Below, piece by piece: positions 1 to 64,000 of a DNA stretch of 64,000 nt. Source of the stretch: Candidatus Omnitrophota bacterium (GTDB taxonomy: Bacteria > Omnitrophota > Gorgyraeia > Gygaellales > Profunditerraquicolaceae); the NCBI GenBank assembly GCA_016208765.1, contig JACQXK010000004.1, forward strand, positions 148,243 to 212,242, in the 5' to 3' direction. The notes under the pieces were generated by a model. That model searched no databases. It was not told where the DNA came from and worked only from the letters and a program-made list of their open reading frames with translations. The first letter of the stretch is position 1. Each line of letters starts with the position of its first letter. The position numbers and the translations under genes were made by a program.

Positions 1-330
1 ATACATGGCAAGCGTACGCAAAACCTTATGGCCGCATTTGTCATACCATGGTGGATTTGAAAAGATCCTATGAAATCTTTCATTAGGCCCCAAGCAATCA
101 TAAAGATCTCCGCAGCAGACCTTCACATTTTTAAATCCACTCAAGTTGGAAACAGCATCATCAAAAGCATCTCTATTAATATCAGTGGCAACAAAACGGA
201 CACCCTCAACGTTCTTACTGCTCATAGCTATAGCAGCAGTCAATATTCCGCTTCCTGTGCCAATCTCAAGCAAACGGCATCCAGTGTGAATATTTTGGCC
301 TATTACATCAACAGCCATATCTGCCAATTG
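1..330 (-). other. HemK/PrmC-type (NPPW motif IV) SAM methyltransferase domain, truncated by the window edge (LEIGTGSG ... DINRDA ... NPPWYDK)
   Basis: Motif I at about 235..260 and NPPW at about 25..45. Confidence 0.55.
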
Positions 331-3300
331 CGGCTCATTATTAGGGAAAGTCGTTTTGGTAGCACGTATTCTTAGCGGGCTTGAACTTAGAGTAGAAATA
401 TGAAACAATTCTATTCTTGCTCTCACAGCCGAAGAGGCGCTGTAGATAGAACCGTCATAATTATTTGTTAACCACATGGGAGAAACCGCCGAAGAAGCTG
501 AAAAGTTTCCCCAGTTATCAGATATAATAGCTATGTCCGGTAAGCAACAATGTTCAAGATAATGCATAAACGACGGAGTATTTATTCTCCAGAATATTTC
601 TTTTACCCTTGATGTACCCTTATAATTATCCAGAGGCATGCTTCTCTGAAGGCCGACTAACGGATTAACCAACATCTGTATTTTAAGATCAAAATATTTA
701 CGCCATTGCCTCACTAAAAGATAATTCCTTTCAATAATCACCACGCTCCTCTGGCGATTAATCGTTAATAATTGCGGTGGCAAAGTCAACTCTCCGCAGC
801 CATCTTCATCATAGAGATCCTTTAATTCATAAATTAATTCATTTTCCCTGCCTTTATTAAAATTCCTTATACTCCTTAGCAATCCTCGTAATACAATCTT
901 TCTTGAAGAAATTTTATTATCATTTACGCTAATTTCATTATGCGACAACTCGTGATCCTGCCAACGATGGCGTTGCATTCTTACACGTGTAAGCAAATCT
1001 CCGTGAATTAACACTACATTAATACCCTCTAACCCTAACGCATATTTAATTTTTTCTGCAGTTGCAGTCTCAAATACAGAATTACCATCTAAAGCCACAA
1101 CTAAGGCTTTATCAGGATTCAGCCTCATAGCAGAAAGAATTTTCTCTTTCAACATATGTATAGTAGAAATATTGTAACCATATCTATCCACCCGCTTATA
1201 TCTCATCTTTTCTAAGAATTGCCTGTACTTGTCATTAAAATATAGGCCCAGTCTTTCTAATTCATCTTTCGGTTGAGCCGGGATTCTGGAAATACCTTGC
1301 CAATCTTCATCCTGCCATACTGCCGATTCTCTTTCATTAAGCCTCTTTCCGATACAGTTATGAACAATTAAGTCGTAGTCTGGGGATATCTTATGCACTT
1401 GATAGAATTCTCTAATTCGCGGCTCGCCAAAACAAACATTCCCTCTCTGCTTAAGATTATAATACCGGGTTTTCTCATCTGCCCAGACATAAACCGTAAT
1501 ATCAAACTTGATACCCAATAAATCTTGCAGTAACAATATAAATATACTATCAATAACAATTACCCGGCGGCGATTCTGCAGCAATAGCGATTCAACATGA
1601 CGCTTGAATGACTCGGTAGTTAATTCATCAAAAAAAACCCAAAGAAATTCTTCTCCATACGGCCGAGCAAAGTCATCAACACGTAAATGTAGTGTTCCAT
1701 CTATTTTCATTAACTTTACAAGTTCCTTACAAAATTCGGATTTTCCAACGCCTGACTCTCCGTCAACAGCCACAAGAATCGGGCGGTAAAAATCTGTCTC
1801 AAGCATTTTATCTTCAATTAACTCTTTCAATAAAGAAACAGCCTGAGCAGGGAAAATTGTGGCTTTAGCATCTGGAAAGATAGGTGAGACTTCCATTCTT
1901 CCTTGCGTGGTCACTAATGCTGCCGAGGTGGCGCTGCGCTTACCCACTGTCCCGAACGAATCGGAAACAGTTTCCGAGTTGTTAGGGAAACTGGGACCTT
2001 TTAGCACCACCGATGATGCGCCGTTTTCGGAATTAAATTTTGAATTAAGTATTGTGTCCCCGGAATTGCCGACAGAAAAACTTGAAGGATTTTTTTGCGG
2101 ATTAAAAGGTATTAGAACGATTCCTTCCTCCGGCGGACCGGTTTCCAAAACCACTGAAGAAAATTGGCTTACTTTTAATATGGCCTGTTTTGCAGCAGCT
2201 TTTAATTTAAAAGGATAGTCGCCGCGCAATATCTCCCCTATTTCTCCCAACACCCACAATGGATCAGAATAACAATTTAAATCATAAAAAAGCCAGAAAA
2301 TCGGAACAGGATTGCATGAGCCTGAATCTTCATTCATTTCTGAGAAATAGATATATTTCAGAAGGCGCAATGATTCTGCATACTTGCTTCTCTTATCAAG
2401 TTGCATGCACAAATAACTATAGAGCTCAAAAGCGCAAAATGACAACTGATTCGTCACAAAATTCTTTCTTTTATTTTCTCTGGCCCACAAACAAAAGGCA
2501 AATTTCATACATCTTGAGAGGCCTTCATTCTCAGCCAATTTAGCATACCAAAATAAAGCCAAAATGAGCTCTTCAGGAGATGCTTCCTTAGCGCGCTTAC
2601 CATTTGAATCTTTAATTTTGGAATAACAATTATTAATTTTTGTTTGGCTGGAATATTTTGGATTTAAAATAAAGGACATAAAATCAATGAACCTGTTCGC
2701 TTTAACAGCAGCCTTCAGACGATGATACAAACTAAGAGAAAATTCAAGCGGCATACTTAATTGTTCTAAGCATTCTATCAGCAAACCAATTCCATCAATT
2801 TTGTCTTTCAGCGCAGAAGAACACATTTTCTCAGGATCAAAACCAGGCTCATTATTTCCCACTAAGTTTATTCTTTTTAAGAAAAATTTATGCATATAAG
2901 CAAAAAAGTTTCTTTTTCTATAAGCATCGTGCGCCTCGTAAGGAATACGAGAGAACTGATCTTTCCCATTAAAAGCTTCCGGATCGCGGCCGCTTTGTGA
3001 TAGAAAATATTCCGATTCTTCCAAACTATCTTCTTTAAGCTCAAATTTAGGCATACCCCATCTATTCAGGAATATATTCATTACCCCTCTTATCGTATGG
3101 CCATTTTTGTCCCAAAAAGGATGTAACTCCATAATAAAACGCCAATGAGCCTCGGAGATTAAATCAATTATCCCAAGTTTATCAGGATTATTATTTAACA
3201 AATCAAGGATACTTTTGACGCCCTCTGAAATTTCTTTTCCGGTAAAAATTGGGAAAGTCTTAACAATATCACCTTGGCAACCTTCATCTAAAACAATATC

Positions 3301-6300
3301 TCTAATCTTACAGGAAAGGCCACTCCGGTATTTTCCTGCCAGGTCTGATCTCAAATCATACTCTCTGAAATATAAACAATTTAGCAATATTACATCTTCT
3401 TCAGTAAGTGGCCTGTTCGCACAAACTAAATAATTAATTAATTCACAGGAAGTGGCAATTTCAGGGCCGTTTACTTCTTTCTCTATGGCAGAGCTGGAGT
3501 TATGATAAAAATGTCCACTGTTTTTCACCGACGAGTGAGCTCCACGTTTACCCACTGTCCCGATTGATTTGGAAACAGTTTCCAAGTTGTTCGGGAAACT
3601 GGGCTCTTTTAGCACCGCCGAGGATGTGCCCTCATCGGAATCAAGTATTGCGCTGCTGCCGGAATTCCCCTTCCTGCGTTCTTCCTTTCTCCTGGCAGTA
3701 GCAATAATAAATTCATTGACTGATGCACATATGCCTCCAACGCCTAAGCCGCTATCTTTGATTGTAGCTTCAGGATCCCTGTCTCCATTAGCTGCACCCC
3801 AATTATTTATACCTAACGCCAAAACTGGATTCCTTGTCTCCGGGAAAGAAGTAACGATGCCGCTAACAGTATCTGCCAGAATCTCCTTCTTGGCGTCATG
3901 TATTGTGATAATAGGAACACCGTCGATAATCAATCTCTTAAGATTTTCTTTTAATGATTCGTTATCTAATCTTGTAACATTAATAATCCGAGCCGTAATA
4001 TTTTGGCGCCTGAGCCACGATGTTGCCTCTAATACGTTCTTCATTATTGCGCCCGTTGCTATAATAATTACATCCGGATGTTCAATATCTTCCCCTTTTA
4101 TAACATAGGCCCCCTTGCTGGGCTGAGAGGAACAACCTCTGTCTAATAAGGGGATGCTTAATCTTGAGGTCCGGAAATATACCGGCCCCTGCCTGTTTAA
4201 TGCTAGCTTCACAAGTTGATAGGTCTCATTCTGGTCAGATGGCTCAAAGTATGCCAATCCTGGAATATATTTATATAAAGCAGGTTCGTAAGAAGATTGG
4301 TGGCTGCGCCCCCCCATAGCCGAAGTTACCCCTCCAACTGCCCCCCAAACAATTACAGGTAAATTATCCTGTGCAATAAATCTGATTTGCTCTGCCATAA
4401 GATTAACCATGGCCTCATAGACCACAATGACCGGCCTCTTTCCTGAATCAGCTAAGCCAGCGGAAATGTTGGCCATACATTGTTCACGAATCCCGATATC
4501 ATAATATCTCCCAGGAAACTCCTTTTTGAAGACATGAATCCCCAAAGAATGAGAACCGGTAAGATCAGAGGTCAATAAAATAATCCTCGTATCGCTATTG
4601 GCCAGTTGGATCAATGATTGAATAAAGGCCGAAGTATTATTTTCGGGAATCATTTTTTCAGAGCTGAAGAACATTGCCTCAGCCTCAACTGAATCTGTGG
4701 CATCTTCAGGCATCTTCCTTATTGGTTCTTTTGGCCGATCAGAATTACATTTATGAATAAGCTGCTCAAGAGTAAGCCTGGTTTGCTTTTCTAATAAATT
4801 TATCTTTGCAATCAATTCGGCTTCCCCTTGCCGGAATAATCGTGGACTGGGCTGGCCATGGTGCCAACGTGAATTACCCTTCAAAGAATCCTTCTCCATA
4901 TAGGATATACCCTTGCCCATGATGGTATTGGCTATGATAATGGTAGGCATCTTTGTTTGCTTTCTTGCCTGTCTCAAGGCTTTGCCTAACGCCGCAAAAT
5001 CATGTCCATCAGTTTCTATAACGCGCCAACCACTCATTCTCCAAAAAGCCGAATTACAGGTCCTTGTATTTTTGGATGTTGGGCCGCTCAGCTGCAGATT
5101 ATTTTTGTCCATAATGGCGATCAAATTCGACAGCCCCAAGAAAGGCGCGACAGCTGCCGCTTCGCTAATCTGCCCCTCTTCTGATTCTCCGTCTCCGAAA
5201 ATCACATACGTATGACGCGATCTTCCGTCAATTTTATCAGCAAGGGCCATTCCGATACCTCGGCCAAGCCCTTGCCCTAAGGATCCAGTAGAAGCCTCTA
5301 TGCCGGGAGTCAAATAAGCGCAAGGATGGGCATTTAATATAGAACCGTACTTGCGAAAGTTATTAAGCTCTCTGCGCTCAAAGAAACCAAATATAGAGAG
5401 TATTGAATACAGGGAGGCTGCAGCGTGGCCTTCGGATAAGATCAATCGATCGCGATTTTGCCAATCATCAATTATTAAATGCCCATCGAAATATAGAGAA
5501 ACTAAAATATCTGTAACACTATAGGTCGCGCCAAAATGGCCGGCGCCGGACATTCTTATCATATCAAAAGCATCTTTTCTTACCCATGCGGCGACCAATT
5601 CTAAATCCTTTTGAGTAAATAGAATTTTAGGGCCGTTTCCTTTTATCCTTATGGCAGAGCTGGAGTTATGATGGAAGCGTCCCTTGTCTTCTGCCGCCGA
5701 GGAGGTATCATTTCTTGAATTAAATATTGCATCACCGGAATTATCCGAGATTTTCTTTATCATTAAATCACGCAGCAGAGTTTCGCCACCCATATAAAAA
5801 GCAAGAGAATTATGACTTCTAAAATATGTATCAAGCTCTTCCATCTTGATAATTGTTTCTTCTCCAAACAACTCAATAAAAGCTGGCATATCGCCTCTCA
5901 TATAGATACTCAAGAACTCTTTTATCGTAATACCATAGTCTGACAATATTAATCTTATTATTCCCCCAATCAAACTTCCTGCCGGAGACGGAAATTCTGG
6001 CTTAAATCCGGTCTCAAAGCTCGAAAAAAGCATAAAAACTGTTTTTGAACGAGCAAGCTGTAAGCTAATTGCTTGGTTAGAGAACTCCATATAGGCAGTG
6101 ATAGCCAGCCATTCTACAACACCTTCATTAACCCAAGTAATACCGTTACCCTGAGCAATATAATGGAAGGCTTCATGGAGAATCATCATTATTTTTCTAT
6201 TTGTATTACAGGCCTGAAACTTATTTTCATTTAAAATTATCTTATGATAAAATGGCGTTAACATTCCATCCGCTGTAGGCATATGCTGTAAAATTCTACC

Positions 6301-9300
6301 AAATAATACATCCTTGGAGAAATCTTGAAAAGAAAAACCATATTTATCGCAAAAACTCCTAGAAATCTGAACAGCTATTTTAATCAATGCCTCTTCGTCT
6401 TTATTTGGCTTTCTTGAATACTCTATTTCTCTTAGGATGACCTCAAAGAGTCCTTTAAAAACCCGCAAAAGAACCTGTTCCTTGGTTTTGGCTTCCCAAT
6501 CTCTCCTAATTTCTAGAATCCTTGCTGTGCCGTAAATAAAACTTGCTGAAAGGGCAATCTCAGAACTAAGTACTGTTTTCTTAAACTTCCTAAAAACTTT
6601 ATTTACTGACTCAATATATTCTCTCGCGTATATTCTATTTGATTTACTGACCGCCGCCGAGGAAGCACCCTGCTTACCCACTGTCCCGATTGATTTGGAA
6701 ACAGTTTCCGAGCTGTTAGGGAAACTGGGCCCTTTCTCCTGCGCCAAAGAAGCATCTGTTGCTGGCGAGCTGGATTGATTTTTAGGCTTAAATATTATTC
6801 TTTGCGGCAAATAGTTCCCATCTCCTCTTCCGCTAAGAACAGCTATGTAAATTCTTGTTCCCACCTGTTCGAGATGAATTTCTTTTCTAGTAAATAAGAT
6901 TTCGGCGCAAGCTTGATTATAATTAAATTCGTAACTATCCCTTATCCCCTTAGCCTCAACAAAAAGAACGGCTGCATCAAACCAAATTAATAAATTGTAT
7001 AAATTCGCAAAACCACAACCCCGGCGAGGACGAGTTCGCTCAAAAAGGTCAGCCGGAAACACGATTCTCTTATCAATGCCCAAGCCGTTATCAACTGCTA
7101 AAAGCTCAAAAATATTCCCCTTATCACTATTTCTGCCTTGAACCATCCTGCAAAGAATAATCATATTTCTATCTGCGGGGATATATTCGGTATTCAAAGC
7201 TAATTCGTGAGCAACTTTGCCTGCTGCCTCCTCAAGAGAAGTTGGTTGCTTATAGGCTTCTCTTACAGTGTCTTCAGCCATAAATTTACATCTACCCGAG
7301 AGAGGACTAACCAAACCATCATCGTATTCAAATGTTTCACGCGGCTCATCAAAAGTAGAAACGAATTTATAATCTTTAAACGGAAACCTATTCACAAAAC
7401 CTTGTCTATCACCGGAATCAAGATATCGCATTAGAACAGCAAATAAATCATTAGATTCTGACAAACCTGGTTTAGATTTCTCCTCAACAACAGAAGAAAC
7501 TCCTGCCAACGATGAACTTGCGCTACTTCTTGGCCGAGTTAATGAAATGAACGCTAAACCGATGAGAACTGAATAAGATAATGGTTTCGGCATAAAAAAA
7601 TCAGCGCCTGCATCAAAAACATCTCTTCTGTATAAATCTGAATCAGAGCTCATAGCTATAATCGGGATAGTCAAGCCTATGTTTCTGGCCCGCCGAATCA
7701 ATACCGGGCCGGTCATGCCCGGCATACAGCAATCAGTAATCAGAATATCAAAACTTTTCTTTGAATCTAATAAGCGCGAGGCTTCCAAGCCATTTGACAC
7801 CATTACATATTCAATTAGAACTCCTTTACCCTTTTTTCTAACCCAGCTATTATAATGCTCAAAATGGCCCTTAATTGTCATTTGTAAATCATCATCATCT
7901 TCTGCCACCAGCACTCTTTTCTGGATAATTTCATCGGGAAGACGAATATTACAGCCTTTTTTATTATTCTCAGGCACTGGGGAAGAAACAGTTACTTCAA
8001 CAAAAGGATTAAATCCCAAATCGCTCCAAAGAAGAACCCTCTGTATCCATAATTCCTTTGCAGAAAAGGTTGAAGAATTTTGCCTGATATAAGCAATGCC
8101 ATGCTGCGGAGAGATCAAAAAATTATAGCTCCACAACCTGCTATAAGTTAAAACAGAAATATCTGATGCCTTGCTTATAAAACCATTGCCGCGGCCTGAA
8201 GCAATCTTTAAAATTTCCTCATATTCTTTAAGATAATCTGCCCTGCAGATTAGATACCCCCTGGCATTACGATAATCAAAATTATCCGGCAAGGTCTTGA
8301 GATAATAATTCCGAGTGCTGTAAACCGGCAGGTTATCGTGAATCAAAACAATCTTCTCGCCTTTAGTGGTCAAAACTACGATAATTAAAAATGTGCAGCC
8401 GTTAAAAAACTCCAGAGAATCATAGAGGAAATTTCCGGATATTAACGGTGAAATCCTCGTATGCCCCTTCACCCGGAATAAACGACGGCCCCCCAGCTTT
8501 CTTGAAGATTCCCTGCTGCTGATAAGTTTACCTGTAATGGCATTATAGCTATGCACTAAGCCGGGGAATTTTGATGCAGAAAGTCTGGCCCGCGGTAACC
8601 ATGGTTTCGTGTTTAAAATACTGTTATATTCTTCAATAATCCTTATAAAATCAGCTTTTTCTTCCAACGCCGATGAGGCAGGTAAAATATCCTGAGGGAT
8701 CCAATATTTCTTAATCTGCCCCAACAAATCTTTTTCCACAAGCTTATTTAATCTTTCAAGATTATCGGAAAAATGCTTAATCTGCTCTTCTATTGCCTCT
8801 TTTCTTAACCTAAACTCTTTGGTTTTCATAAGCAATGCTGCGGGCTGACCAAAAACATCTTTAAAAACATTCACAAAATCCATATCAAATGAGCAAGCGC
8901 CTTCTATTAAATAAACCAGTTGTAGTAATTCATTTCCGTAATCTATAATCAGGCCCTTTTCTTCTTCCCCAAATTCCTGCTTGCCTGCACAAACTAATAA
9001 TTGCTCAATTATTCTACGAGATGATCCAATAAAATTAAAAACAGCTGCCTGCTTTATTTGAGCGGATTCTTTATTGTCTTCTATCGGAGATGCTGAGCCT
9101 TTTGCAGGATGAACAGAAACATCCTTTTTTACAGGAGAAATCACGCTTTCTTTTGGAATCTGTAGTAAAAGAAACCGGCCATTTATTTTAAATGCCCTAA
9201 GGCCTAGCCTTAAAGAATATTTCTCAATCTGTCCGCCAAGAAAACGCATCGCAGCCTCAGTACAAAACATACCACCATCTCTAAAACCAGAATTATTAAC

Positions 9301-11259
9301 TTCCAAAGTAGCCAAAGCACTAACATTAACGAGGATCAGGCTTCTTTTTTTACCTGAAATCAAATCATCATAATAGCAAACACCTCCTGTCCAAGAACAG
9401 CATGGATAATCTTTGCAAATTTGAGGCTTGCAATCATTATGCAAACAACAGTGGCTTAACCAAGTCAATCTCCCGGATGCATCCATATCCAATACAACCG
9501 CCATTGCGCGGCAAGCAAATGTTTTATAAAGATAAACAAACAAATCTTCCGGAAGGATCTCGTTGCCACAAAATGATCCTAAACTATCTATATCATCAGC
9601 ATGAGCTAAAATCACATCCTTGTTCAAATATCTGCCATCGGCATATTCTTTATTTAATGCACCGGATATTTCAACAGGATGCATAGAGAAGTCATTATGG
9701 TAAGGAAAGAAACAACACAATCCATCTGCGCACTGCTTGCTGCCATCTGGCCTTTCCCCATAAATAAAAGGCAGCAAATCTATTTTTCCATTATTTAGCG
9801 ACGAAGAACTCTCGGCTGGTTTACTATGAACCTGCGCAAACTCAATCTGAAATCTTTCAGAGATGGATAAAGGAGATGAAACGCCTTCTGCGCGAGAAAC
9901 AGAAACGTCAGCTGTTTTACGAAGCACATCCTTAGTTCCAAAAACAAAGAAAGCTGTCTCCCCCCAGCTGGCCAAATAATAATTATTGGTTAGCCCCAAT
10001 TCTCTATTTAAATTAAGCATGCCTCTCTCACCGGCCTTCTTCTCTAGATAATCTAATCCCCACATCCCAAAGAAAATAATCACAGACCTATCTTGAGCAA
10101 GAATTTTAAAAGCATTATTTATGGCTTTTCGCATTTCTACCCGTTTAAATTTGAAATAAACATCACAAAGCATAAAAATCGCAGAAACTGAATTCATTTT
10201 AAAAGGAAGCTTGTTCAAGAAGCTTTCTTTTAAAATATGAAAGTTATTTAAGGGCTTATTTTTGAGATTACTTAGAATAGAATGAATATTCTGAGCATCC
10301 GGCTCAATGCCATAAGTTTGCAAATGGGGATAAATCTCTGCTATTAAACGGGAATCCGCAGCTTCACCACAACCAAAATCAACAACTAAGCTATCTTTTC
10401 TTAAATCAAGTTGCGATAAAATCTTTAGCATTTTATCCCCGCAGAAAATCCTTAAATCAAAAAAATCATTTTTACCCCCGGAATATACATCAGTACAAAA
10501 CGAATACCCATGCTCAGCATCAGCAAATCTTAGCGGGTCGCTCAATTGTCCGGTTACTACCAAATAGTCTCTTAGGCTTTGCATATCCGGATCAAGGACT
10601 TCTTCCACATGAAAATCTATTACAAATTTAGGATATCTTACATTTAGATGCGTTAACTTCGTCAATTCTTGCTCGCTATAAACACCGTATCTTAAAAGCA
10701 ATTCGTCAGGAATAATAATTCTTTCCTTTTCGTTAATCGGGCTAAAAGATTTTCCATAAAGAGGTCCAGATACTTCTATTATTTGACTGACAAGATCCGA
10801 GAATTCCCCTTCCATTGCCGAAGAAGAACAATTCCGGATAGACATAAAATACTTTCCCCTCACAGGGTCACCAGGAATAACAACTCGCGGCATTTCAAAG
10901 ATACGTTCTTTTTCTAGAGAGAAATACTCAACTCTTTCTACCATTAGCGCATTACCGTCAATACCATGAATGGCTGCCCTGATAGTTATTTCGCTTGCTC
11001 CTCTTGCATGGCACCATTGATGAAAGTTTAATGGATTAGCATAATCAATAATCAAGATCTTTCCATACTTATTCAAAAGTGAAAACGCCTGTCTTAAAAC
11101 AAGCTCAATTCCCCTCATGCTGTTTAAAGATTCATTGAACAACACTAAATCAAAACCTCCGGGGGCCGCAATTTCAGGGCAGTTCAAAGCAACACGCTGC
11201 ATAATCTCAATAGCTGCATAAGCACTTCCGACATAAGCACCAGACCAAAAACCACACAT
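1..11259 (-). CDS. Second very long minus-strand ORF (plus coordinates congruent to 1 mod 3), 3'-partial (runs off the left edge, at least 3,750 codons). Very likely the continuation of the giant gene after a -1 frameshift.
   Basis: Manual reverse-complement codon-by-codon translation from the ATG at 11257..11259 (frame opens after TAA at 11266..11268) down to position 1 found no stop and gave coherent domains (methyltransferase motifs, REC, GHKL, transketolase, Fic-like, P-loop kinase, NPPW methyltransferase). Frame consistency was verified at 9259. It is not in the ORF track because it has no in-window stop. The off-frame minus ORF density is consistent with a single open frame. Confidence 0.75.
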   Translation of the reverse strand, partial: MCGFWSGAYVGSAYAAIEIMQRVALNCPEIAAPGGFDLVLFNESLNSMRGIELVLRQAFSLLNKYGKILIIDYANPLNFHQWCHARGASEITIRAAIHGIDGNALMVERVEYFSLEKERIFEMPRVVIPGDPVRGKYFMSIRNCSSSAMEGEFSDLVSQIIEVSGPLYGKSFSPINEKERIIIPDELLLRYGVYSEQELTKLTHLNVRYPKFVIDFHVEEVLDPDMQSLRDYLVVTGQLSDPLRFADAEHGYSFCTDVYSGGKNDFFDLRIFCGDKMLKILSQLDLRKDSLVVDFGCGEAADSRLIAEIYPHLQTYGIEPDAQNIHSILSNLKNKPLNNFHILKESFLNKLPFKMNSVSAIFMLCDVYFKFKRVEMRKAINNAFKILAQDRSVIIFFGMWGLDYLEKKAGERGMLNLNRELGLTNNYYLASWGETAFFVFGTKDVLRKTADVSVSRAEGVSSPLSISERFQIEFAQVHSKPAESSSSLNNGKIDLLPFIYGERPDGSKQCADGLCCFFPYHNDFSMHPVEISGALNKEYADGRYLNKDVILAHADDIDSLGSFCGNEILPEDLFVYLYKTFACRAMAVVLDMDASGRLTWLSHCCLHNDCKPQICKDYPCCSWTGGVCYYDDLISGKKRSLILVNVSALATLEVNNSGFRDGGMFCTEAAMRFLGGQIEKYSLRLGLRAFKINGRFLLLQIPKESVISPVKKDVSVHPAKGSASPIEDNKESAQIKQAAVFNFIGSSRRIIEQLLVCAGKQEFGEEEKGLIIDYGNELLQLVYLIEGACSFDMDFVNVFKDVFGQPAALLMKTKEFRLRKEAIEEQIKHFSDNLERLNKLVEKDLLGQIKKYWIPQDILPASSALEEKADFIRIIEEYNSILNTKPWLPRARLSASKFPGLVHSYNAITGKLISSRESSRKLGGRRLFRVKGHTRISPLISGNFLYDSLEFFNGCTFLIIVVLTTKGEKIVLIHDNLPVYSTRNYYLKTLPDNFDYRNARGYLICRADYLKEYEEILKIASGRGNGFISKASDISVLTYSRLWSYNFLISPQHGIAYIRQNSSTFSAKELWIQRVLLWSDLGFNPFVEVTVSSPVPENNKKGCNIRLPDEIIQKRVLVAEDDDDLQMTIKGHFEHYNSWVRKKGKGVLIEYVMVSNGLEASRLLDSKKSFDILITDCCMPGMTGPVLIRRARNIGLTIPIIAMSSDSDLYRRDVFDAGADFFMPKPLSYSVLIGLAFISLTRPRSSASSSLAGVSSVVEEKSKPGLSESNDLFAVLMRYLDSGDRQGFVNRFPFKDYKFVSTFDEPRETFEYDDGLVSPLSGRCKFMAEDTVREAYKQPTSLEEAAGKVAHELALNTEYIPADRNMIILCRMVQGRNSDKGNIFELLAVDNGLGIDKRIVFPADLFERTRPRRGCGFANLYNLLIWFDAAVLFVEAKGIRDSYEFNYNQACAEILFTRKEIHLEQVGTRIYIAVLSGRGDGNYLPQRIIFKPKNQSSSPATDASLAQEKGPSFPNSSETVSKSIGTVGKQGASSAAVSKSNRIYAREYIESVNKVFRKFKKTVLSSEIALSASFIYGTARILEIRRDWEAKTKEQVLLRVFKGLFEVILREIEYSRKPNKDEEALIKIAVQISRSFCDKYGFSFQDFSKDVLFGRILQHMPTADGMLTPFYHKIILNENKFQACNTNRKIMMILHEAFHYIAQGNGITWVNEGVVEWLAITAYMEFSNQAISLQLARSKTVFMLFSSFETGFKPEFPSPAGSLIGGIIRLILSDYGITIKEFLSIYMRGDMPAFIELFGEETIIKMEELDTYFRSHNSLAFYMGGETLLRDLMIKKISDNSGDAIFNSRNDTSSAAEDKGRFHHNSSSAIRIKGNGPKILFTQKDLELVAAWVRKDAFDMIRMSGAGHFGATYSVTDILVSLYFDGHLIIDDWQNRDRLILSEGHAAASLYSILSIFGFFERRELNNFRKYGSILNAHPCAYLTPGIEASTGSLGQGLGRGIGMALADKIDGRSRHTYVIFGDGESEEGQISEAAAVAPFLGLSNLIAIMDKNNLQLSGPTSKNTRTCNSAFWRMSGWRVIETDGHDFAALGKALRQARKQTKMPTIIIANTIMGKGISYMEKDSLKGNSRWHHGQPSPRLFRQGEAELIAKINLLEKQTRLTLEQLIHKCNSDRPKEPIRKMPEDATDSVEAEAMFFSSEKMIPENNTSAFIQSLIQLANSDTRIILLTSDLTGSHSLGIHVFKKEFPGRYYDIGIREQCMANISAGLADSGKRPVIVVYEAMVNLMAEQIRFIAQDNLPVIVWGAVGGVTSAMGGRSHQSSYEPALYKYIPGLAYFEPSDQNETYQLVKLALNRQGPVYFRTSRLSIPLLDRGCSSQPSKGAYVIKGEDIEHPDVIIIATGAIMKNVLEATSWLRRQNITARIINVTRLDNESLKENLKRLIIDGVPIITIHDAKKEILADTVSGIVTSFPETRNPVLALGINNWGAANGDRDPEATIKDSGLGVGGICASVNEFIIATARRKEERRKGNSGSSAILDSDEGTSSAVLKEPSFPNNLETVSKSIGTVGKRGAHSSVKNSGHFYHNSSSAIEKEVNGPEIATSCELINYLVCANRPLTEEDVILLNCLYFREYDLRSDLAGKYRSGLSCKIRDIVLDEGCQGDIVKTFPIFTGKEISEGVKSILDLLNNNPDKLGIIDLISEAHWRFIMELHPFWDKNGHTIRGVMNIFLNRWGMPKFELKEDSLEESEYFLSQSGRDPEAFNGKDQFSRIPYEAHDAYRKRNFFAYMHKFFLKRINLVGNNEPGFDPEKMCSSALKDKIDGIGLLIECLEQLSMPLEFSLSLYHRLKAAVKANRFIDFMSFILNPKYSSQTKINNCYSKIKDSNGKRAKEASPEELILALFWYAKLAENEGLSRCMKFAFCLWARENKRKNFVTNQLSFCAFELYSYLCMQLDKRSKYAESLRLLKYIYFSEMNEDSGSCNPVPIFWLFYDLNCYSDPLWVLGEIGEILRGDYPFKLKAAAKQAILKVSQFSSVVLETGPPEEGIVLIPFNPQKNPSSFSVGNSGDTILNSKFNSENGASSVVLKGPSFPNNSETVSDSFGTVGKRSATSAALVTTQGRMEVSPIFPDAKATIFPAQAVSLLKELIEDKMLETDFYRPILVAVDGESGVGKSEFCKELVKLMKIDGTLHLRVDDFARPYGEEFLWVFFDELTTESFKRHVESLLLQNRRRVIVIDSIFILLLQDLLGIKFDITVYVWADEKTRYYNLKQRGNVCFGEPRIREFYQVHKISPDYDLIVHNCIGKRLNERESAVWQDEDWQGISRIPAQPKDELERLGLYFNDKYRQFLEKMRYKRVDRYGYNISTIHMLKEKILSAMRLNPDKALVVALDGNSVFETATAEKIKYALGLEGINVVLIHGDLLTRVRMQRHRWQDHELSHNEISVNDNKISSRKIVLRGLLRSIRNFNKGRENELIYELKDLYDEDGCGELTLPPQLLTINRQRSVVIIERNYLLVRQWRKYFDLKIQMLVNPLVGLQRSMPLDNYKGTSRVKEIFWRINTPSFMHYLEHCCLPDIAIISDNWGNFSASSAVSPMWLTNNYDGSIYSASSAVRARIELFHISTLSSSPLRIRATKTTFPNNEPQLADMAVDVIGQNIHTGCRLLEIGTGSGILTAAIAMSSKNVEGVRFVATDINRDAFDDAVSNLSGFKNVKVCCGDLYDCLGPNERFHRIFSNPPWYDKCGHKVLRTLAMY
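600..1130 (-). other. Degenerate PRK-like (pseudokinase) domain: Walker A replaced by ALDGNSVFETAT, family tail retained (VVIIERNYLLVRQWRKYFDLKIQMLVNP)
   Basis: Fold-level motif order retained; the P-loop lysine is lost. Confidence 0.3.
1350..1800 (-). other. PRK/uridine-kinase-family P-loop kinase domain, second copy (VAVDGESGVGKSEF ... VIVIDSIFIL ... DITVYVWADEKTRYYNLKQRG)
   Basis: Walker A GESGVGKS anchored at about 1740..1795. Confidence 0.5.
1918..2030. repeat. Linker cassette copy L1 (core CCCACTGTCCCG at 1943..1954, palindrome GGAAACAGTTTCC; peptide ASSVVLKGPSFPNNSETVSDSFGTVGKRSATSAA)
   Basis: Direct nucleotide-level similarity to copies L2, L4 and L5. Confidence 0.8.
2880..3420 (-). 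other. Fic/Doc-like domain with a variant motif HPFWDKNGHTIR (canonical HPFx[DE]GNGRxxR)
   Basis: Motif at about 3090..3130; the Gly-to-Lys and Arg-to-His changes suggest altered or no AMPylation activity. Confidence 0.35.
3484..3670. repeat. Linker cassette copy L2 (ATGGCAGAGCTGGAGTTATGAT, then the CCCACTGTCCCGATTGATTTGGAAACAGTTTCC core at about 3550, then CACCGCCGAGGATG; peptide SSAVLKEPSFPNNLETVSKSIGTVGKRGAHSSV...HNSSSAI)
   Basis: Read directly. Confidence 0.85.
3750..5640 (-). other. Complete transketolase-like unit: TPP-binding N domain (GHAAASLYSIL; GDGESEEGQISEAA), pyrimidine-binding domain and C-terminal domain
   Basis: Signature transketolase motifs in the correct order over about 620 aa; bracketed by linker cassettes at 5650..5750 and 3484..3670. 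Confidence 0.65.
5650..5750. repeat. Linker cassette copy L3, partial (ATGGCAGAGCTGGAGTTATGATGG ... CTGCCGCCGAGGAGG; peptide TSSAAEDKGRFHHNSSSAI), without the PIGTVGK core
   Basis: The 24-nt ATGGCAGAGCTGGAGTTATGAT is identical to that in L2. Confidence 0.7.
6140..6200 (-). other. HExxH zincin-like motif with a downstream Glu (MMILHEAFHYIAQGNGITWVNEG)
   Basis: HExxH plus NEG 14 residues later (gluzincin-like spacing); domain limits unknown. Confidence 0.3.
6650..6780. repeat. Linker cassette copy L4 (CTTACCCACTGTCCCGATTGATTTGGAAACAGTTTCCGAGCTGTTAGGGAAACTGGGCCC; peptide GPSFPNSSETVSKSIGTVGKQGASSAAV)
   Basis: Nearly identical to L2 over about 60 nt. Confidence 0.85.
6960..7170 (-). other. GHKL/HATPase_c-like domain 3 (LAVDNGLGIDK; GCGFANLYNLL) immediately after the REC domain
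   Basis: D-box and G-box motifs. Confidence 0.4.
7560..7930 (-). other. Response-regulator receiver (REC) domain, canonical (VLVAEDDDD ... DILITDCCMPGMTG ... AMSSD ... MPKP)
   Basis: Acidic pocket, phospho-acceptor Asp, Thr/Ser and Lys positions all present. Confidence 0.6.
10130..10480 (-). other. Class-I SAM methyltransferase domain (VVDFGCGEAADSRLIAEIYPHLQTYGIEPDAQN)
   Basis: Motif I plus an acidic residue in the GIEPD stretch; in the downstream frame. Confidence 0.5.
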
Positions 11260-11268
11260 CCATTTTTA
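11184..11268 (-). other. Frameshift junction splitting a class-I SAM methyltransferase domain (motif I, VGCGDGS, is in the upstream frame; post-I and motif II/III, FDLVLFNESL...LLNKYGKILIID, are in the -1 frame). Candidate one-nucleotide indel near the TTTTT/GGTCTGG run at 11238..11250.
   Basis: The giant frame reads ...ILSVGCGDGSLEKLLLKNGCVVFG then nonsense and a stop. The overlapping -1 frame reads ...GAYVGSAYAAIEIMQRVALNCPEIAAPGGFDLVLFNESLNSMRGIELVLRQAFSLLNKYGKILIIDYANP, matching the equivalent stretch of the two other methyltransferase copies in this gene (GISVEGWELDRQLY / GINVFGCEFNNSLY). Confidence 0.6.
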
Positions 11269-14200
11269 AGCAAAAGTTTTTCTAAGCTTCCATCTCCACA
11301 GCCTACTGAAAGAATCCTGGTTTTATTCCCGGCACAAGACTCTAATATTAATCCAAGAATGAATTTTCTGTATCCTAAGCATGATATCGTATCCGTACTC
11401 ATTGTTTTCCTATCTATGTTGTCATAAATTTGCCGCAATACCTGGGAGTAAACCCTCTCCAAGAAAGAACTCCAATTATCAATCGGAGCCAAAAACGCAC
11501 TAATAATTGCCTCGTTTAAAGGAAACTTAGTTACACTTCCTTCCTTTTGATAGGCTTCAGCGCTTTTCAAATCTTCAAAATATAAATAAAGCAGAATGAA
11601 AAAACGCAATAAATCCTGATAGCTTAATAAATTAGCAGAAAAATAGCTGACAACTTCTCTCAGGAAAACGCATATTTTCAGTTCCACTTCTTCTCCAAAC
11701 ATGGAAGATAATCTAAGAATAAGAATTCTATCCGCTTCAGCATCATTAACCATGCCAGAAAAATTTTCGTTATCAACCATGCAAGATACTTTCTTAACCA
11801 AGCCACTATGCTTTCCATCATCGGATAATAACTGCAAAAGGCTATTTAAGTCATATTTACTTACTGTCTTACTCCCAAGCGCAGAAGACACACAAGAATT
11901 ATCCATGTAAACTTCACATAAATTTCCATTAGCAAGAGATTTAAGAACGGAGGAAGAACTATATCCATTGTTAACGATAGAGAATTTTGTTCCCAGATTC
12001 ATTCGGCACCAAAAACTATTGTTGATTATTAAATCGTACTCTGGAGTAAAAGCGTAAATATGCGGCAGCTTGATAGACATCTGTATTGCTTTCTCATTAG
12101 AAACTCCCCTTGATATAAGATTCCTTCGGCGAGTGGCCGGACTGGCGCGAATATTTAATTTTATATCAAACTGCGCACCCAACTTAAGAAGATATTCTTC
12201 AAGATACAATGCTTTGAACCCCTCAACAATAAGCACCTCTGTCCGGACATCTTTCAAAACCAAAGATACCTTATCTCTCAAACTATACCAATCAATTATT
12301 TCACATAACTGTTTAGATTCATTTTTATAATTTACGACAAAGTCATCAATATGCAAAACTTGCACCCTATAATCTTCTCTTAAAAGCGCATAAGAAATAG
12401 TTGTTTTACCCACAGCCTTCTTCCCATCAATGCAAACTAACACTGTTGTCCCTAAGGAAAGCTGGCCTTTTTTAAAATCAATTACCTCTTTTAAATATCC
12501 AAATGCCCATTTTGCCGGAACCGGTATTCCTAAAAAGTTCATAAATAATGAGGCTAATAATTTCAGGAAATTAATCGTTCTATAGATAACTGGCGACGCT
12601 TTAATATTTTGACCCACCGCAGAAGAAGAAATTGAGTCAATTTTAAACATTAGCTTCTCGCGAAAATCCCTATATCCTTTTTGCTTATTTATAAAATCAT
12701 AATAAACAACATTCCTGCTAATATTGTCGCGGAATGTTTCATCAAACCCTATCAATAACGTTGGAACAAGTATTCCTTGTTTCTCAATATCTCTTATCAA
12801 TCCAAGCCCCTGATTGTCTTTTAATTCGCAATCAATAATAAACACATTAAATTTTTTAGTTCTTAACAAGCATAAAGCCGCATCTTTGTCGCTAACAAAA
12901 CTACGCTCAATTTCAATTGATCTTCCTTGGTCATTTAAGAAATAGTTAAACGAATCAAAATACTGAATTATATCTCTACGCAATGGAGCAAAATCAGTTA
13001 CAACTAATACCTCCACAGTTATACTACTAGAGCTCGCTCTGCCTCTAATCTTAACCGCAGATGAAACGCTCCTCTCTTTGTTAATATTACCTAAAGTTTT
13101 TCTTAGTTTATTTTTAAGCTCCTCTGGGCCTTTTACCAATATCGCCTTTATTCCGATTGCCTTTGCCGGTTCAATATCAGTTTGCTTGTTATCCCCCAGA
13201 GAAACACATAAATCAGCAGAAACTCCCAGCTGATTAAGAAGCCACACAAAATCCTTAACACCGGCAGAACCCTGAGCAGAATAAACCGCGTTAAATAAAT
13301 CATAAATTTCTAATATTCTAAGCACCTCTTCAGCAGTTATTTTTGCGGAACTTGTATACAGAATAAATTTATACCTGCCGGTGGCTTTAAGCTCAGCAAG
13401 AAGCATTTTTAATTCCTGGTCAGGAGTTTTTAAATATTTGCTAACTTGAATACCGGCTTGAGCCATAAATTTCTCTTCAGCAGATATCCCAAGAGCTTTT
13501 AAAACTTCTACATCCTGCACCCAACTGTTGCTTTTACCCTTTAATTCATTTCTAACAACACTAAACTTCCTCTTTGCGTGATTTATTGCAGGCAATTTTA
13601 ATTGTGCTTGGATTAGCGCATAAACTAAATTCATATATGCAGCGATAAGGCTGCGGCAATTATGCAAGGTTTTGTCTAAATCAAAAATTAGATAATAAAT
13701 CGGGCTGGATGAAGTTGGGAAGTTATAAATAGCAGGAGCTGTGGCAGCTATTTGTGCCGGCGGTGCCCTGCCACGCACAGCTAAATCCCAACCTGAAATA
13801 TTAGTGATGTTTCTATTTTCCTTATCCAGCGCTGAAGACGCCCGGCTGATTATTGCGTTAGCAGCAGCATCCGGACTAATCTGCCAGAAATATTCTGCGG
13901 GTTTTTTCCTAAAATCACTGCGATATCTTGACCATGCTCTATCTAATTTATTCTGCGGTATACTTTTTGTAAGGCGCAAAAAACAATCAGCTTGTATTTG
14001 CGACCACGTCCGCCATAACGGCTTGGGAAGGCCCGCAAACCTTTCCCAGTATATATCCGGAATAATTGCCGCGTTTATTCTTCCAAGCCCTTGGCGCTTT
14101 GCAGTTAACCCAGTAACAAAGAAACCAACGGAAGAATAATACTCTGTTAACCCGTTCTTCAATTTTGCTTCTTCTTCATCCAAACCGCAAATAGCCCAAA

Positions 14201-63917: not shown

Positions 63918-64000
63918 CCTTTCAATAACTGCCCCATCCCAAGTTACAAATGCAGCAAAGGCCGCATTAATTAAATATTTAAGGTACCCCGTAGGCCCTG

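Follow-up and report, generated by a model that had tools for sequence, protein, structure and literature searches.

A portable, divergent transketolase-family module between predicted disordered linkers of a giant Omnitrophota protein and its candidate junction peptide

The giant proteins of the Omnitrophota, with up to about 147,000 amino acids, are a recognized puzzle. An “Archaeovorin” type (West-Roberts et al. 2023, 10.1101/2023.11.21.568195) and a “multi-enzyme metabolic cluster” class (Nielsen & Lui 2026, 10.64898/2026.06.07.730766) have been described. The points at which such proteins might be cleaved are unknown, as is whether they function intact or in pieces, and the missing cleavage points have blocked their structural analysis (West-Roberts et al. 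2023). The locus analyzed here, a stretch of 64,000 nucleotides referred to as the window, poses this question for a single enzyme. A preliminary description of the sequence had reported a complete transketolase (TK), bounded by linker cassettes on both sides, within a giant reading frame. How is this enzyme embedded in the giant protein, and do its borders carry information? Our overall reading, to which a probability of roughly 0.6 is assigned, is that of a portable, divergent bead of the TK family between predicted disordered linkers that carry a selected junction peptide.

The giant reading frame and its transketolase-family module

The reading frame on the minus strand is composed of the stop-free frames 11187-63998 (17,604 codons) and 1-11265 (3,755 codons) and contains one 1-nt frameshift, with a T5 run near 11,250; an assembly error, a pseudogene lesion or programmed slippage may underlie it. 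Across this frameshift, the 17,604 aa and the 5,170 aa of the annotated continuation P0121 add up to a length of at least 22,774 aa. P0121 was found with 100% identity as NCBI MBI4706705.1 from a Candidatus Omnitrophica/Omnitrophota bacterium, and this identical protein assigns the host to a Candidatus Omnitrophota metagenome-assembled genome. A chance or artefactual reading frame was ruled out by the 52.8 kb without a stop codon at about 40% GC and by the identical deposited protein.

More than 20 distinct Pfam families, none of them dominant, are distributed along the protein, including methyltransferases, HAD, TPR, response regulator and sugar-metabolism enzymes, and its membrane features are one EamA module plus a few hydrophobic segments. 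With an Omnitrophota genome as its source, at least 10,000 aa and many Pfam families, the protein has two properties of an Omnitrophota multi-enzyme giant protein. It resembles those in the two papers in origin, in a reading frame of tens of thousands of codons, in many Pfam families, in probable transmembrane segments and in largely orphan sequence. The SecA-like and C39 peptidase domains reported as typical gave no match within the window; the N terminus of the protein lies outside of it. The 1,469 aa that precede the TK yielded zero matches in a homology search of 5.8 billion proteins, indicating that the modules there are orphans, and no orthologue of the giant protein was found with this region or with the downstream linker cassette. 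The TK region is free of transmembrane segments, lies among cytoplasm-type enzymes and appears to be cytoplasmic. The features are listed in Table 1.

Table 1. Features of the giant reading frame around the transketolase-family module. “L3” and “L2” are the linkers upstream and downstream of the module; positions are those of the window.
Feature	Position	Strand	Basis or remark
Giant multi-enzyme reading frame	1..63998	(-)	Runs off both window ends; stop-free frames, Pfam tiling
Long linker cassette, previous copy, opens HExxH module	6620..6776	(-)	
Orphan module upstream of TK with HEAFH-x12-NEG (zincin-like motif)	5758..6621	(-)	Motif; weak Pfam match
Upstream linker L3, ~43 aa, ends in GRFHHNSSSAIRIKGNGPKI	5629..5757	(-)	Cassette copy without ~100-nt core; AF2, repeat, alignment to L2
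Junction peptide SSSAI	5650..5664	(-)	15 residues ahead of first conserved TK helix (LELVAAWV)
TK-family module, complete, ~658 aa, PP (N) + Pyr + C	3655..5628	(-)	Pfam, AF2, Foldseek, NCBIfam
ThDP-binding (PP) domain, Transketolase_N	4903..5592	(-)	Pfam E 7.6e-46; GDG...N Mg/ThDP motif, catalytic histidines
Pyr domain, Transket_pyr	4156..4632	(-)	Pfam 1.6e-25; cofactor-activating Glu present
C-terminal TK domain, Transketolase_C	3868..4113	(-)	Pfam; fold extends to about 3655
Downstream linker L2, ~64 aa, full cassette (..SSAILDSDEGTSSAVLKEPSFPNNLETVSKSIGTVGKRGA..GHFYHNSSSAIEKEVNGPEI)	3463..3654	(-)	AF2; repeats D1, D2, D5, D10
Three junction peptides of L2	3646-3660, 3613-3627, 3484-3498	(-)	
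Long linker cassette, next copy, closes Fic-like module after TK	1886..2042	(-)	

The Pfam domains N, Pyr and C of the module, the single TK module that Pfam found in the giant protein, are contiguous and collinear. A PDB sequence search aligned human TKT to query residues 41-593 (E 4.6e-56), and the alignment to the C chain of a split TK (6yaj) spans query residues 357-635. The AlphaFold2 (AF2) model of 3346-5793, which includes the module and both linkers, reached a mean pLDDT of 81.8 and a pTM of 0.80, with a confident TK body over 3655-5628. Foldseek compared this model best with 6had (E 1.8e-39, TM 0.88), and the TM scores to human TKT were 0.86-0.89. The match to the NCBIfam model NF004559 is untruncated, extending over positions 16-624 of the 627 in the model. 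Pfam, the PDB search, AF2, Foldseek and the alignment of L2 with L3 thus bore out that three contiguous, untruncated TK domains are enclosed by homologous copies of one linker cassette, L3 upstream and L2 downstream. The positions given previously, 5650-5750 for L3, 3484-3670 for L2 and 3750-5640 for the TK, were within a few codons of those found here.

Another thiamine diphosphate (ThDP) enzyme, DXP synthase (DXS) or the E1 component of pyruvate dehydrogenase (PDH-E1), would have been the other identity for such a module. The NCBIfam scores were 347 bits for transketolase, 128 bits for DXS (TIGR00204, cut-off 466) and 54 bits for aceE (cut-off 860), all of the best 50 Foldseek matches were transketolases, and the DXS matches in the PDB search were confined to the Pyr and C part, with far weaker scores. 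These results rule out DXS and PDH-E1, as the preliminary description had expected. Nevertheless, all four curated TK equivalog cut-offs (NF004559, NF004556, TIGR00232 and NF004558) were missed, with 347 versus 488, 276 versus 575, 266 versus 682 and 225 versus 788 bits. The closest ordinary TKs are at most 36-40% identical to the module. A scan of the genome contigs with the module found no relative, and a scan of metagenome contigs with an alignment of three TK sequences retrieved only ordinary split TKs with at most 42% identity, none of them (0) within long reading frames. By these comparisons, the module is a divergent TK-family enzyme and not a proven pentose-phosphate transketolase.

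Portability of the module and its altered substrate pocket

Two relatives of the module were found. One of them (P0001/L002), 56% identical to the module, is a genuine stand-alone gene, with a start and stop within about 10-15 residues of the seams and its own ribosome-binding site. The other, 57% identical, resides on another contig in a second giant gene (L001) with a GC content that differs from that of the window gene. The TK module is the only part common to the window protein and L001, and the homology ends at the seams, with unrelated neighbors beyond. The mutual identity of the three copies is 56-57%. The earlier proposal of a whole enzyme gene inserted as a module was thereby supported. 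Because it occurs as a free-standing gene and also between unrelated neighbors in another giant gene, the module behaves, as judged from these relatives, as a portable unit. We regard this portability, together with the identity of the module, as highly probable.

Alignment of the TPP- and substrate-binding residues gave a divided result. The residues H37, H77, H110, D155, N185, H258 and E366 (numbering of human TK, hTKT, here and below), comprising the ThDP/Mg, catalytic and Glu positions, are kept in all three copies, and the pocket residues S345 and R474 are retained in the window module. In contrast, R318 is replaced by T, H416 by V, D424 by G and F392 by M. We take the roles of these four residues, contacts with the phosphate of the sugar and with the C2-hydroxyl of the acceptor, from the structures of the yeast, E. 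coli and human transketolases. In 58 ordinary short TKs, which served as the conservation reference, R318 was present in 58/58, H416 in 56/58, D424 in 56/58 and F392 in 58/58 proteins. The signature GAVGGVTSAMGGRSHQ in the Pyr domain stands in place of the canonical GSHxGxxxGEDGPxxQ.

All three copies have G at position 424 and M at position 392, and across the three, R318 is replaced by T, I and T and H416 by V, G and V. The three proteins are, by these residues, a small divergent subfamily with an intact ThDP/Mg site and intact catalytic histidines but with replaced pocket residues. Two further proteins, P0124 and P0204, carry part of this signature, with a non-R residue at 318, M392, a non-H residue at 416 and no Asp at 424; P0124 additionally lacks R474. 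Other TK modules in long proteins are mostly canonical. The similar replacements across the three members suggest an alternative pocket under conservation instead of random decay.

This bears on two other explanations of the module. It could be a decaying, non-catalytic remnant that serves as structural filler, in line with the scores under the equivalog cut-offs, the lost pocket residues and the frameshift elsewhere in the gene, which hints at possible decay. Every ThDP/Mg and catalytic residue, however, is kept in three copies of only 56-57% identity, the replaced positions are alike in them, and one copy is a free-standing gene with its own ribosome-binding site, all of which makes such a relic highly improbable. 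A module that is catalytically altered or inactive could nevertheless be in accord with the missed cut-offs.

Alternatively, the module may be a canonical pentose-phosphate transketolase (X5P + R5P <-> S7P + G3P) that serves central carbon metabolism together with the phosphofructokinase (PFK) module. The full fold, all cofactor and catalytic residues, the TK equivalogs as the best NCBIfam matches and the PFK in the same giant protein agree with this, as do many other Omnitrophota long proteins in which a canonical TK adjoins a transaldolase or PFK. On the other hand, all three close subfamily members (3/3) have other residues in place of R318, H416, D424 and F392, 347 bits remain below the cut-off of 488 bits with the other three TK models missed as well, and the identity to the nearest ordinary TKs does not exceed 36-40%. 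The central-carbon role assigned in the preliminary description is consequently doubtful and a canonical transketolase unlikely; the interpretation as a whole was supported in part.

The divergent module may still bind ThDP and transfer a two-carbon ketol unit, probably with substrates other than the canonical sugar phosphates, and its canonical activity is predicted to be weak or absent. It shares with the short human-type TKs of about 620 aa (TKT 3MOS, 4KXU) and the split TKs of Carboxydothermus (6YAK/6YAJ) the three-domain fold, ThDP/Mg motif, catalytic histidines, activating Glu, S345 and R474, but differs in the replaced pocket residues, in an identity of only 26-27% in the Foldseek alignment and in forming part of a chain longer than 22,000 aa, where those enzymes are free. 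Pocket variants of the E. coli transketolase (S385Y/D469T/R520Q, 5HHT) accept non-phosphorylated or non-hydroxylated aldehydes. The changes in the window module presumably are at the equivalents of H461, D469 and R358 of the E. coli enzyme. The pocket positions are equivalent to those of the engineered variants, and 5HHT is among the Foldseek matches; unlike them, the window enzyme is natural and retains the equivalents of R520 and S385.

Linker cassettes and the junction peptide

Both linkers next to the module, residues 13-55 (L3) and 714-777 (L2) of the AF2 model, have a pLDDT below 50 and no secondary structure, and they are predicted to be disordered. They share a 79-nt direct repeat, 3457-3535 and 5623-5701, with 78% identity and a spacing of 2166 nt or 722 codons. 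This repeat contains an identical core of about 23 nt, as read off the printed copies; by an estimate of our own, calculated with no tool, chance alone would give about 3e-5 such exact matches in 64 kb. Cassettes of a second family, 119-157 nt long, are present at 1886-2042, 3494-3650, 6620-6776 and 17812-17930, and the DNA identity between copies of the long cassettes is 66-80%. In the alignment, L3 corresponds to the L2 cassette minus its core of about 100 nt. The codons of the core are identical in both TK-flanking cassettes, and locally their similarity requires no more than common descent or gene conversion. A homology search with the 71-aa L2 cassette had no match, so that the long DNA cassettes are private to the window gene.

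The linkers carry a shorter element, the junction motif [ASV]-S-S-[AP]-[VIL], found roughly once per 400 residues along the giant protein. Its core SS[AP][VIL] was counted 54 times versus 3.1 expected copies and a maximum of 9 in shuffled sequences; control motifs with permuted residue order had 0-3 copies. An unbiased 4-mer scan ranked SSAV, ASSA and SSSA at the top, with a score of 55.8 compared to a shuffle maximum of 14.5. The motif density is 2.5 per 1000 aa versus 0.07-0.16 in ordinary proteins. Only 2 of the 54 motifs lie within Pfam envelopes versus 7.3 expected (P = 0.017), and the flanks of the motifs are modestly more polar than random positions. Two motifs are located inside the EamA membrane module. 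The motifs are mostly located at the edges of gene-sized modules and bracket the PFK, His_Phos, hydrolase, HAD, Fic and TK modules. PFK, which had been named as a further module of this kind, is bracketed likewise. Concerning the “standard seams” of the preliminary description, the general element is a junction peptide of 4-5 residues and not the private long cassettes.

In L001, the TK copy has an SSPV on either side, and 14 motifs were found versus 1.0 expected. Other Omnitrophota long multi-enzyme proteins possess their own junction peptides, SGLEE, AGVEQ and SPSG, with 8 copies of GLEE versus 0.13 expected, 7 of GVEQ versus 0.06 and 4 of SPSG versus 0.04. At four aligned junctions, GLEE and GVEQ are exchanged between the orthologues P0193/P0191 and P0239, which are 61% identical. 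This concerted switch was observed in these other Omnitrophota proteins; the window protein is without an orthologue.

Several readings of the motif other than a peptide signal were considered. A DNA- or RNA-level signal at SS[AP][VIL] was ruled out, because the codons differ between the copies, and Rfam gave zero matches in 1-12000. A Shine-Dalgarno sequence for internal initiation, as GLEE could encode GGAGGA, was ruled out by the varying GLEE codons, several copies without GGAG and the lack of a consistent start codon after the motif. Signal peptidases follow a (-3,-1) rule, and a reading of this type is inconsistent with the Pro in the motif. An intein-like self-cleavage between HN and SSS in the TK-flanking cassettes was not adopted: no Hint domain was found, and most junctions have no HN. 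In the giant protein, a short peptide is located at the module boundaries with a pattern of selection at the peptide level, as in a polyprotein. It is likely that the junction peptide is under selection as a recognition element.

Recognition element or passive tether

The linkers may instead be passive tethers, flexible spacers in which the motif goes back to a private cassette, through common descent, duplication and gene conversion, and to a Ser/Ala-rich composition. The giant protein would then stay uncut as a membrane-anchored multi-enzyme scaffold, with dimerization of the TK modules of neighboring chains. The identity of the long cassettes, the identical core codons next to the TK, the absence of the cassette from all other proteins in the homology search and the predicted disorder of the linkers are compatible with this, and inner-membrane-anchored cytoplasmic architectures are favored in published views. 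Most of the 54 motif copies, however, are not part of the long cassettes and differ in their codons, the residue order is strict, as the permuted controls showed no enrichment, and the same peptide brackets the TK in an unrelated giant gene of another GC content. Elsewhere, the peptide changes together at all aligned junctions with varying codons, which gene conversion of 12-nt patches fails to explain. Passive tethering is for these reasons possible but doubtful.

The junction peptides could also be sites of post-translational modification, Ser O-glycosylation or phosphorylation, and not of cleavage. Their Ser-Ser core lies in low-complexity, predicted disordered segments, and these giant proteins often contain glycosyltransferase modules. 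The peptides of the other lineages, however, never have more than one Ser and lack a Ser-Ser core; in [AS]GLEE and [AS]GVEQ, Ser is merely the alternative to Ala at the first position. A common role in Ser modification is unlikely as a consequence, and the TK region appears to be cytoplasmic. Modification sites are a very improbable explanation.

As a selected recognition element, the junction peptide would be the target of a factor acting in trans. An endopeptidase is the most likely candidate; it would divide the giant protein into its individual enzymes, in the manner of a processed polyprotein. By this analogy, proteolytic release of modules at the junction peptides may occur, a tentative proposal with less than even chances. 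A built-in peptidase in the HExxH module is only a lead: with respect to a peptidase assignment, the PDB sequence search was empty, the single-sequence AF2 model had a pLDDT of 42 and the match to the Pfam family PhageMetallopep (E 0.084) was below the threshold.

Transketolase active sites are formed only at the interface of a homodimer. Two TK modules would have to pair because the giant protein contains a single one. Pairing might occur between neighboring giant chains, aided by the floppy tethers of 43 and 64 residues, or after release. In a wider and rather speculative version, the Omnitrophota giant multi-enzyme reading frames would be cellular polyproteins, with complete and exchangeable enzymes strung together like the genes of an operon and separated by a protein-specific peptide, a co-evolving endopeptidase and release of the TK as a free dimer.

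The viral polyproteins with 3C or NIa sites of picornaviruses and potyviruses are similar in having complete proteins in one reading frame and a short repeated junction peptide, and in a peptide that changes together at all junctions between relatives, as in the other Omnitrophota proteins. They differ from the giant protein with its cellular host, far larger reading frame and membrane modules. AROM, FAS and PKS/NRPS also have several enzymes per chain and flexible linkers, but these serve one pathway, stay covalently linked and share no junction peptide, whereas heterogeneous modules are shuffled between genes here.

No description of a transketolase module or of an inter-module junction peptide was found in West-Roberts et al. 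2023 or Nielsen & Lui 2026. Should the divergent TK subfamily accept non-phosphorylated substrates, it would be interesting for biocatalysis, and the k-mer scan is a simple method to segment any giant protein ahead of structure prediction. The locus shows that a short and statistically strong junction peptide can parse a giant protein into gene-sized modules, that a module passes from one giant gene to another and occurs as a free gene as well, and that related proteins switch the peptide at all junctions together. The junction peptides lead to a directly testable prediction of processing, which, if true, would provide a predicted cleavage map of the Omnitrophota giant proteins.

The giant gene and its junction peptide

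The entire window is a single minus-strand gene. A stop-free frame at 11187-63998 (17,604 codons) overlaps a second one at 1-11265 (3,755 codons), which runs out of the window, and the overlap (11187-11265) falls within a SAM-methyltransferase domain. Joining the frames across a T5 run regained a Methyltransf_23 match (36.6 bits; cut-off, 27) and therefore revealed one gene with a 1-nt frameshift. Possible explanations for this shift near the T5 run are an assembly error, a lesion, and a slippage site. In an exhaustive HMMER search, the downstream part of the product was 100% identical to P0121 (5,170 aa; NCBI MBI4706705.1, “MAG: response regulator [Candidatus Omnitrophica bacterium]”) from a 225-kb contig, which GenBank annotates as a separate “response regulator.” Taken together with the upstream frame, the deposited protein brings the product of the gene to 22,774 aa or more.

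Pfam families along this protein were PFK, CofD, EamA, TPR, histidine phosphatase, alpha/beta-hydrolases, HAD, several methyltransferases, a response-regulator receiver, transketolase (TK), a weak Fic match, a P-loop kinase, and HTH motifs. The tiling fits the published Omnitrophota “multi-enzyme metabolic cluster” or Archaeovorin-like class, and the megaprotein itself is of a known kind, since giant proteins of Omnitrophota, including the multi-enzyme class, have already been described (West-Roberts et al. 2023, bioRxiv 10.1101/2023.11.21.568195; Nielsen & Lui 2026, bioRxiv 10.64898/2026.06.07.730766).

A junction peptide was strongly enriched at the module edges, with varied codons from copy to copy. 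Its core, SS[AP][VIL], occurred 54 times compared to 3.1 expected from shuffles (maximum, 9), preceded by A, S, or V in 45 of the 54 copies, and SSS[AP][IVL] occurred 17 times (0.3 expected), while permuted residue orders as a control gave 0 to 3 copies. When all 4-mers of the 22,774 aa were scanned without bias, SSAV (21 versus 0.56 expected) ranked at the top together with ASSA and SSSA, at a score of 55.8 versus a shuffle maximum of 14.5. The density was 2.5 motifs per 1,000 aa (mean spacing, 395 aa), whereas ordinary transketolases (n = 118) had 0.07 and the ORFs of 54 unrelated metagenome loci 0.16. Only 2 copies, both in the EamA membrane module, were inside Pfam envelopes (7.3 expected, P = 0.017), and the motif flanks were more polar (z = 3.6) and less hydrophobic (z = -4.1) than random positions. 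Recognizable enzymes were flanked by motifs at gene-like sizes (see the table), and in the HAD module the DxDxT motif follows seven residues past the junction peptide.

A longer seam form, SS[AP]VGAVV(A/R), was present at three junctions with motif starts at 36692, 52106, and 54737, each followed about 10 residues on by another SSA motif; this sub-type differs from the cassette flanking the TK module. Two adjoining tandem arrays whose repeat periods are not divisible by three, containing the inverted repeats CCCCGUUGCAAAUG / CAUUUGCAACGGGG, are located at 51690-52040 on the minus strand. The ORF stays open through this segment, whose GC3 (0.467) deviates most strongly within the gene and which folds as RNA with -160.8 kcal/mol compared to -113.4 ± 6.2 for shuffles (z = -7.65).

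Positions of features in the window and of the motifs flanking recognizable enzymes, the latter numbered in the concatenated protein
Feature	Window position	Flanking motifs	Remark
Transketolase_N	4903-5592 (-)		Pfam
Transket_pyr	4156-4632 (-)		Pfam
Transketolase_C	3868-4113 (-)		Pfam
Longer linker cassette copies	1886-2042, 3494-3650, 6620-6776, 17812-17930		
Tandem array 1	51881-52030		46 nt x 3.3 copies
Tandem array 2	51799-51884		38 nt x 2.3 copies, 100% identity
PFK		2671, 3088	
Histidine phosphatase		8216, 8639	
Hydrolase		8860, 9103	
HAD		16764, 16979	
TK		19473, 20141	
Fic-like		20195, 20420	

The transketolase module and its substrate pocket

The preliminary description had proposed a complete three-domain transketolase unit between linker cassettes, and this observation was confirmed, with coordinates right to a few codons. 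The N, Pyr, and C domains adjoin one another without interruption. Human transketolase aligned with residues 41 to 593 of the query (E = 4.6e-56) and the C chain of a split transketolase up to residue 635, so that the module is not truncated. An AlphaFold2 model of 3346-5793 from a 74-sequence alignment (mean pLDDT, 81.8; pTM, 0.80) contained a confident body at 3655-5628 between flanks at 5629-5757 (L3) and 3463-3654 (L2) with a pLDDT below 50 and no secondary structure. The best 50 Foldseek matches were all transketolases, headed by human TKT (E = 1.8e-39; TM, 0.88).

When the module was aligned with human TKT and with short transketolases of the ordinary type (n = 58), H37, H77, H110, G123-S-L, D155, E157, E160, N185, H258, S345, E366, and R474 (human numbering) were all kept, and the cofactor site is thus intact. 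Four other positions were replaced: R318T (R in 58 of 58 ordinary enzymes), H416V (H in 56 of 58), D424G (D in 56 of 58), and F392M (F in 58 of 58). Two close relatives carried similar replacements (T/I/T at 318 and V/G/V at 416 across the three, with G at 424 and M at 392 throughout), and all three shared GAVGG.TSAMGGRSHQ where others have GSHxGxxxGEDGPxxQ. By analogy with transketolases from yeast, E. coli, and humans, these positions would bind the substrate phosphate (E. coli R358 and H461) and the acceptor C2-hydroxyl (E. coli D469). The best NCBIfam model was a transketolase equivalog (347 bits), below its cut-off of 488 bits, and the other three transketolase models likewise missed theirs. 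Replaced pocket residues and missed cut-offs thus indicate a divergent enzyme of the TK family. An identity as DXS or PDH-E1 was rejected at 128 and 54 bits, respectively. Of the proposed central-carbon transketolase, the family was upheld. The module has very probably preserved its cofactor chemistry, but that it functions as pentose-phosphate transketolase is doubtful.

Where TK modules form part of other long proteins, most kept the canonical pocket; two such proteins, P0124 and P0204, had part of the divergent signature.

Linkers, portability, and origin of the module

Homologous tethers that are predicted to be disordered are present on both sides of the module, and they contain the junction peptide found along the whole giant protein. 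The proposed cassettes are real DNA repeats, with a 79-nt direct repeat at 3457-3535 and 5623-5701 that is 78% identical with an identical core. The copies are 2166 nt or 722 codons apart, so that recombination between them would delete the TK module in frame. In the alignment, L3 was the L2 cassette without its core of about 100 nt. More cassette copies follow past the window in P0121, and a homology search found the long cassette in no other protein, making it private to this gene.

A word-indexed search yielded two close relatives of the TK module (56 to 57% identity) and otherwise matches of at most 36% identity, and an exhaustive search added none above 40%, short fragments aside. One relative, P0001, is a free-standing gene of 675 aa; a ribosome-binding site of the GGAG type precedes it, a stop codon closes it, and its neighbor is transcribed divergently. 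The ends of P0001 are near the seam positions, at most about 10 to 15 residues off. The other, P0002, resides in a second fragmented giant gene (contig L001) with HEAT, ATP-grasp, methyltransferase, and HATPase modules, where a single-base difference in a homopolymer accounts for its frameshift. When the whole window protein was compared to L001 by tblastn, the TK module was the sole match and homology stopped at the seams; there, ..KSSSPVEEG.. and ..DGQSSPVESS.. flank the module, and the contig contains 14 motifs (1.0 expected). A homology search with the 1,469 residues upstream of TK found no homologue. These results demonstrate module exchange between genes. Among 39 modules, TK (GC3, 0.409) and PFK (0.427) were high outliers (mean, 0.339; SD, 0.043), and GC3 of TK exceeded that of its neighbors in L001 and on the contig of P0001 (L002) too, which hints at separate origins. 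TK (3658-5661) and PFK (54737-55988) are also the best-conserved metabolic enzyme modules, with the highest GC3 among large modules.

Possible role of the seams

About 20 of the best 150 TK matches among 1.84 billion representative proteins were embedded in proteins of 1,200 to 5,400 aa, several named Candidatus Omnitrophota. In several of the long proteins, a short peptide particular to the protein was enriched at the edges of modules, also directly past TK: [AS]GLEE in P0193 (8 versus 0.13 expected) and P0191, [AS]GVEQ in P0239 (7 versus 0.06), SPSG in P0130 (4 versus 0.04), and SSP[VILA] in P0123 and P0241. P0193 and P0239 are 61% identical, and at four aligned junctions GLEE of P0193 and P0191 corresponds to GVEQ of P0239. 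The GLEE codons differ (GGC CTG GAA GAA, GGC TTG GAG GAG, GGT TTG GAG GAA, and others), which argues for selection on the peptide and rules out a Shine-Dalgarno-like DNA word.

P0193, P0191, P0239, and P0130 (among these long proteins also L057, 682-12405), with the private peptides SGLEE, AGLEE, AGVEQ, and SPSG, appear to possess N-terminal signal-peptide-like segments. Transketolase occurs in them together with transaldolase (Pfam TAL_FSA in P0193) and, as judged by eye, other sugar-metabolism enzymes.

A peptide that is private to a protein, lies at module boundaries, and changes at all of them together behaves as a site recognized by a single trans-acting factor should, and the junction peptide probably acts as such a recognition element. 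Proteolytic processing at these peptides is the favored reading, with a probability of roughly one in three. That the linkers are instead purely passive tethers, homogenized by descent or gene conversion, is only slightly less probable, and a role of the peptides as modification sites is quite improbable. Directly upstream of TK, an orphan module (5758-6621, minus strand) contains HEAFH-x12-NEG (..ILHEAFHYIAQGNGITWVNEGVVEWLA..), the sole zincin-like context among the two HExxH matches of the giant protein; for a peptidase identity, only a sub-threshold PhageMetallopep match (E = 0.084) was obtained.

The TK module is probably on the cytoplasmic side because its neighbors are cytoplasm-type enzymes and about 3,900 residues separate it from the nearest strong hydrophobic segment upstream. 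Transketolase active sites form across the dimer interface, so that the single TK module of a giant chain needs another as its partner; pairing may take place in trans between giant chains or following release. P0123 (3,487 aa, Candidatus Omnitrophota) possesses two tandem transketolase-like units, the first degenerate at the activating Glu and the pocket and the second canonical as read by eye, which could be an in-cis answer to the dimer requirement.

The observation in the preliminary description stood, and its interpretation was supported in part. The published accounts of giant Omnitrophota proteins examined mention no transketolase modules, linkers, or junction motifs, and the rule for junction peptides, the module's demonstrable portability, and the divergent substrate pocket appear to be new. 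Whether and where these giant proteins are cleaved was explicitly posed as a question in those papers, and the finding makes this question directly testable.
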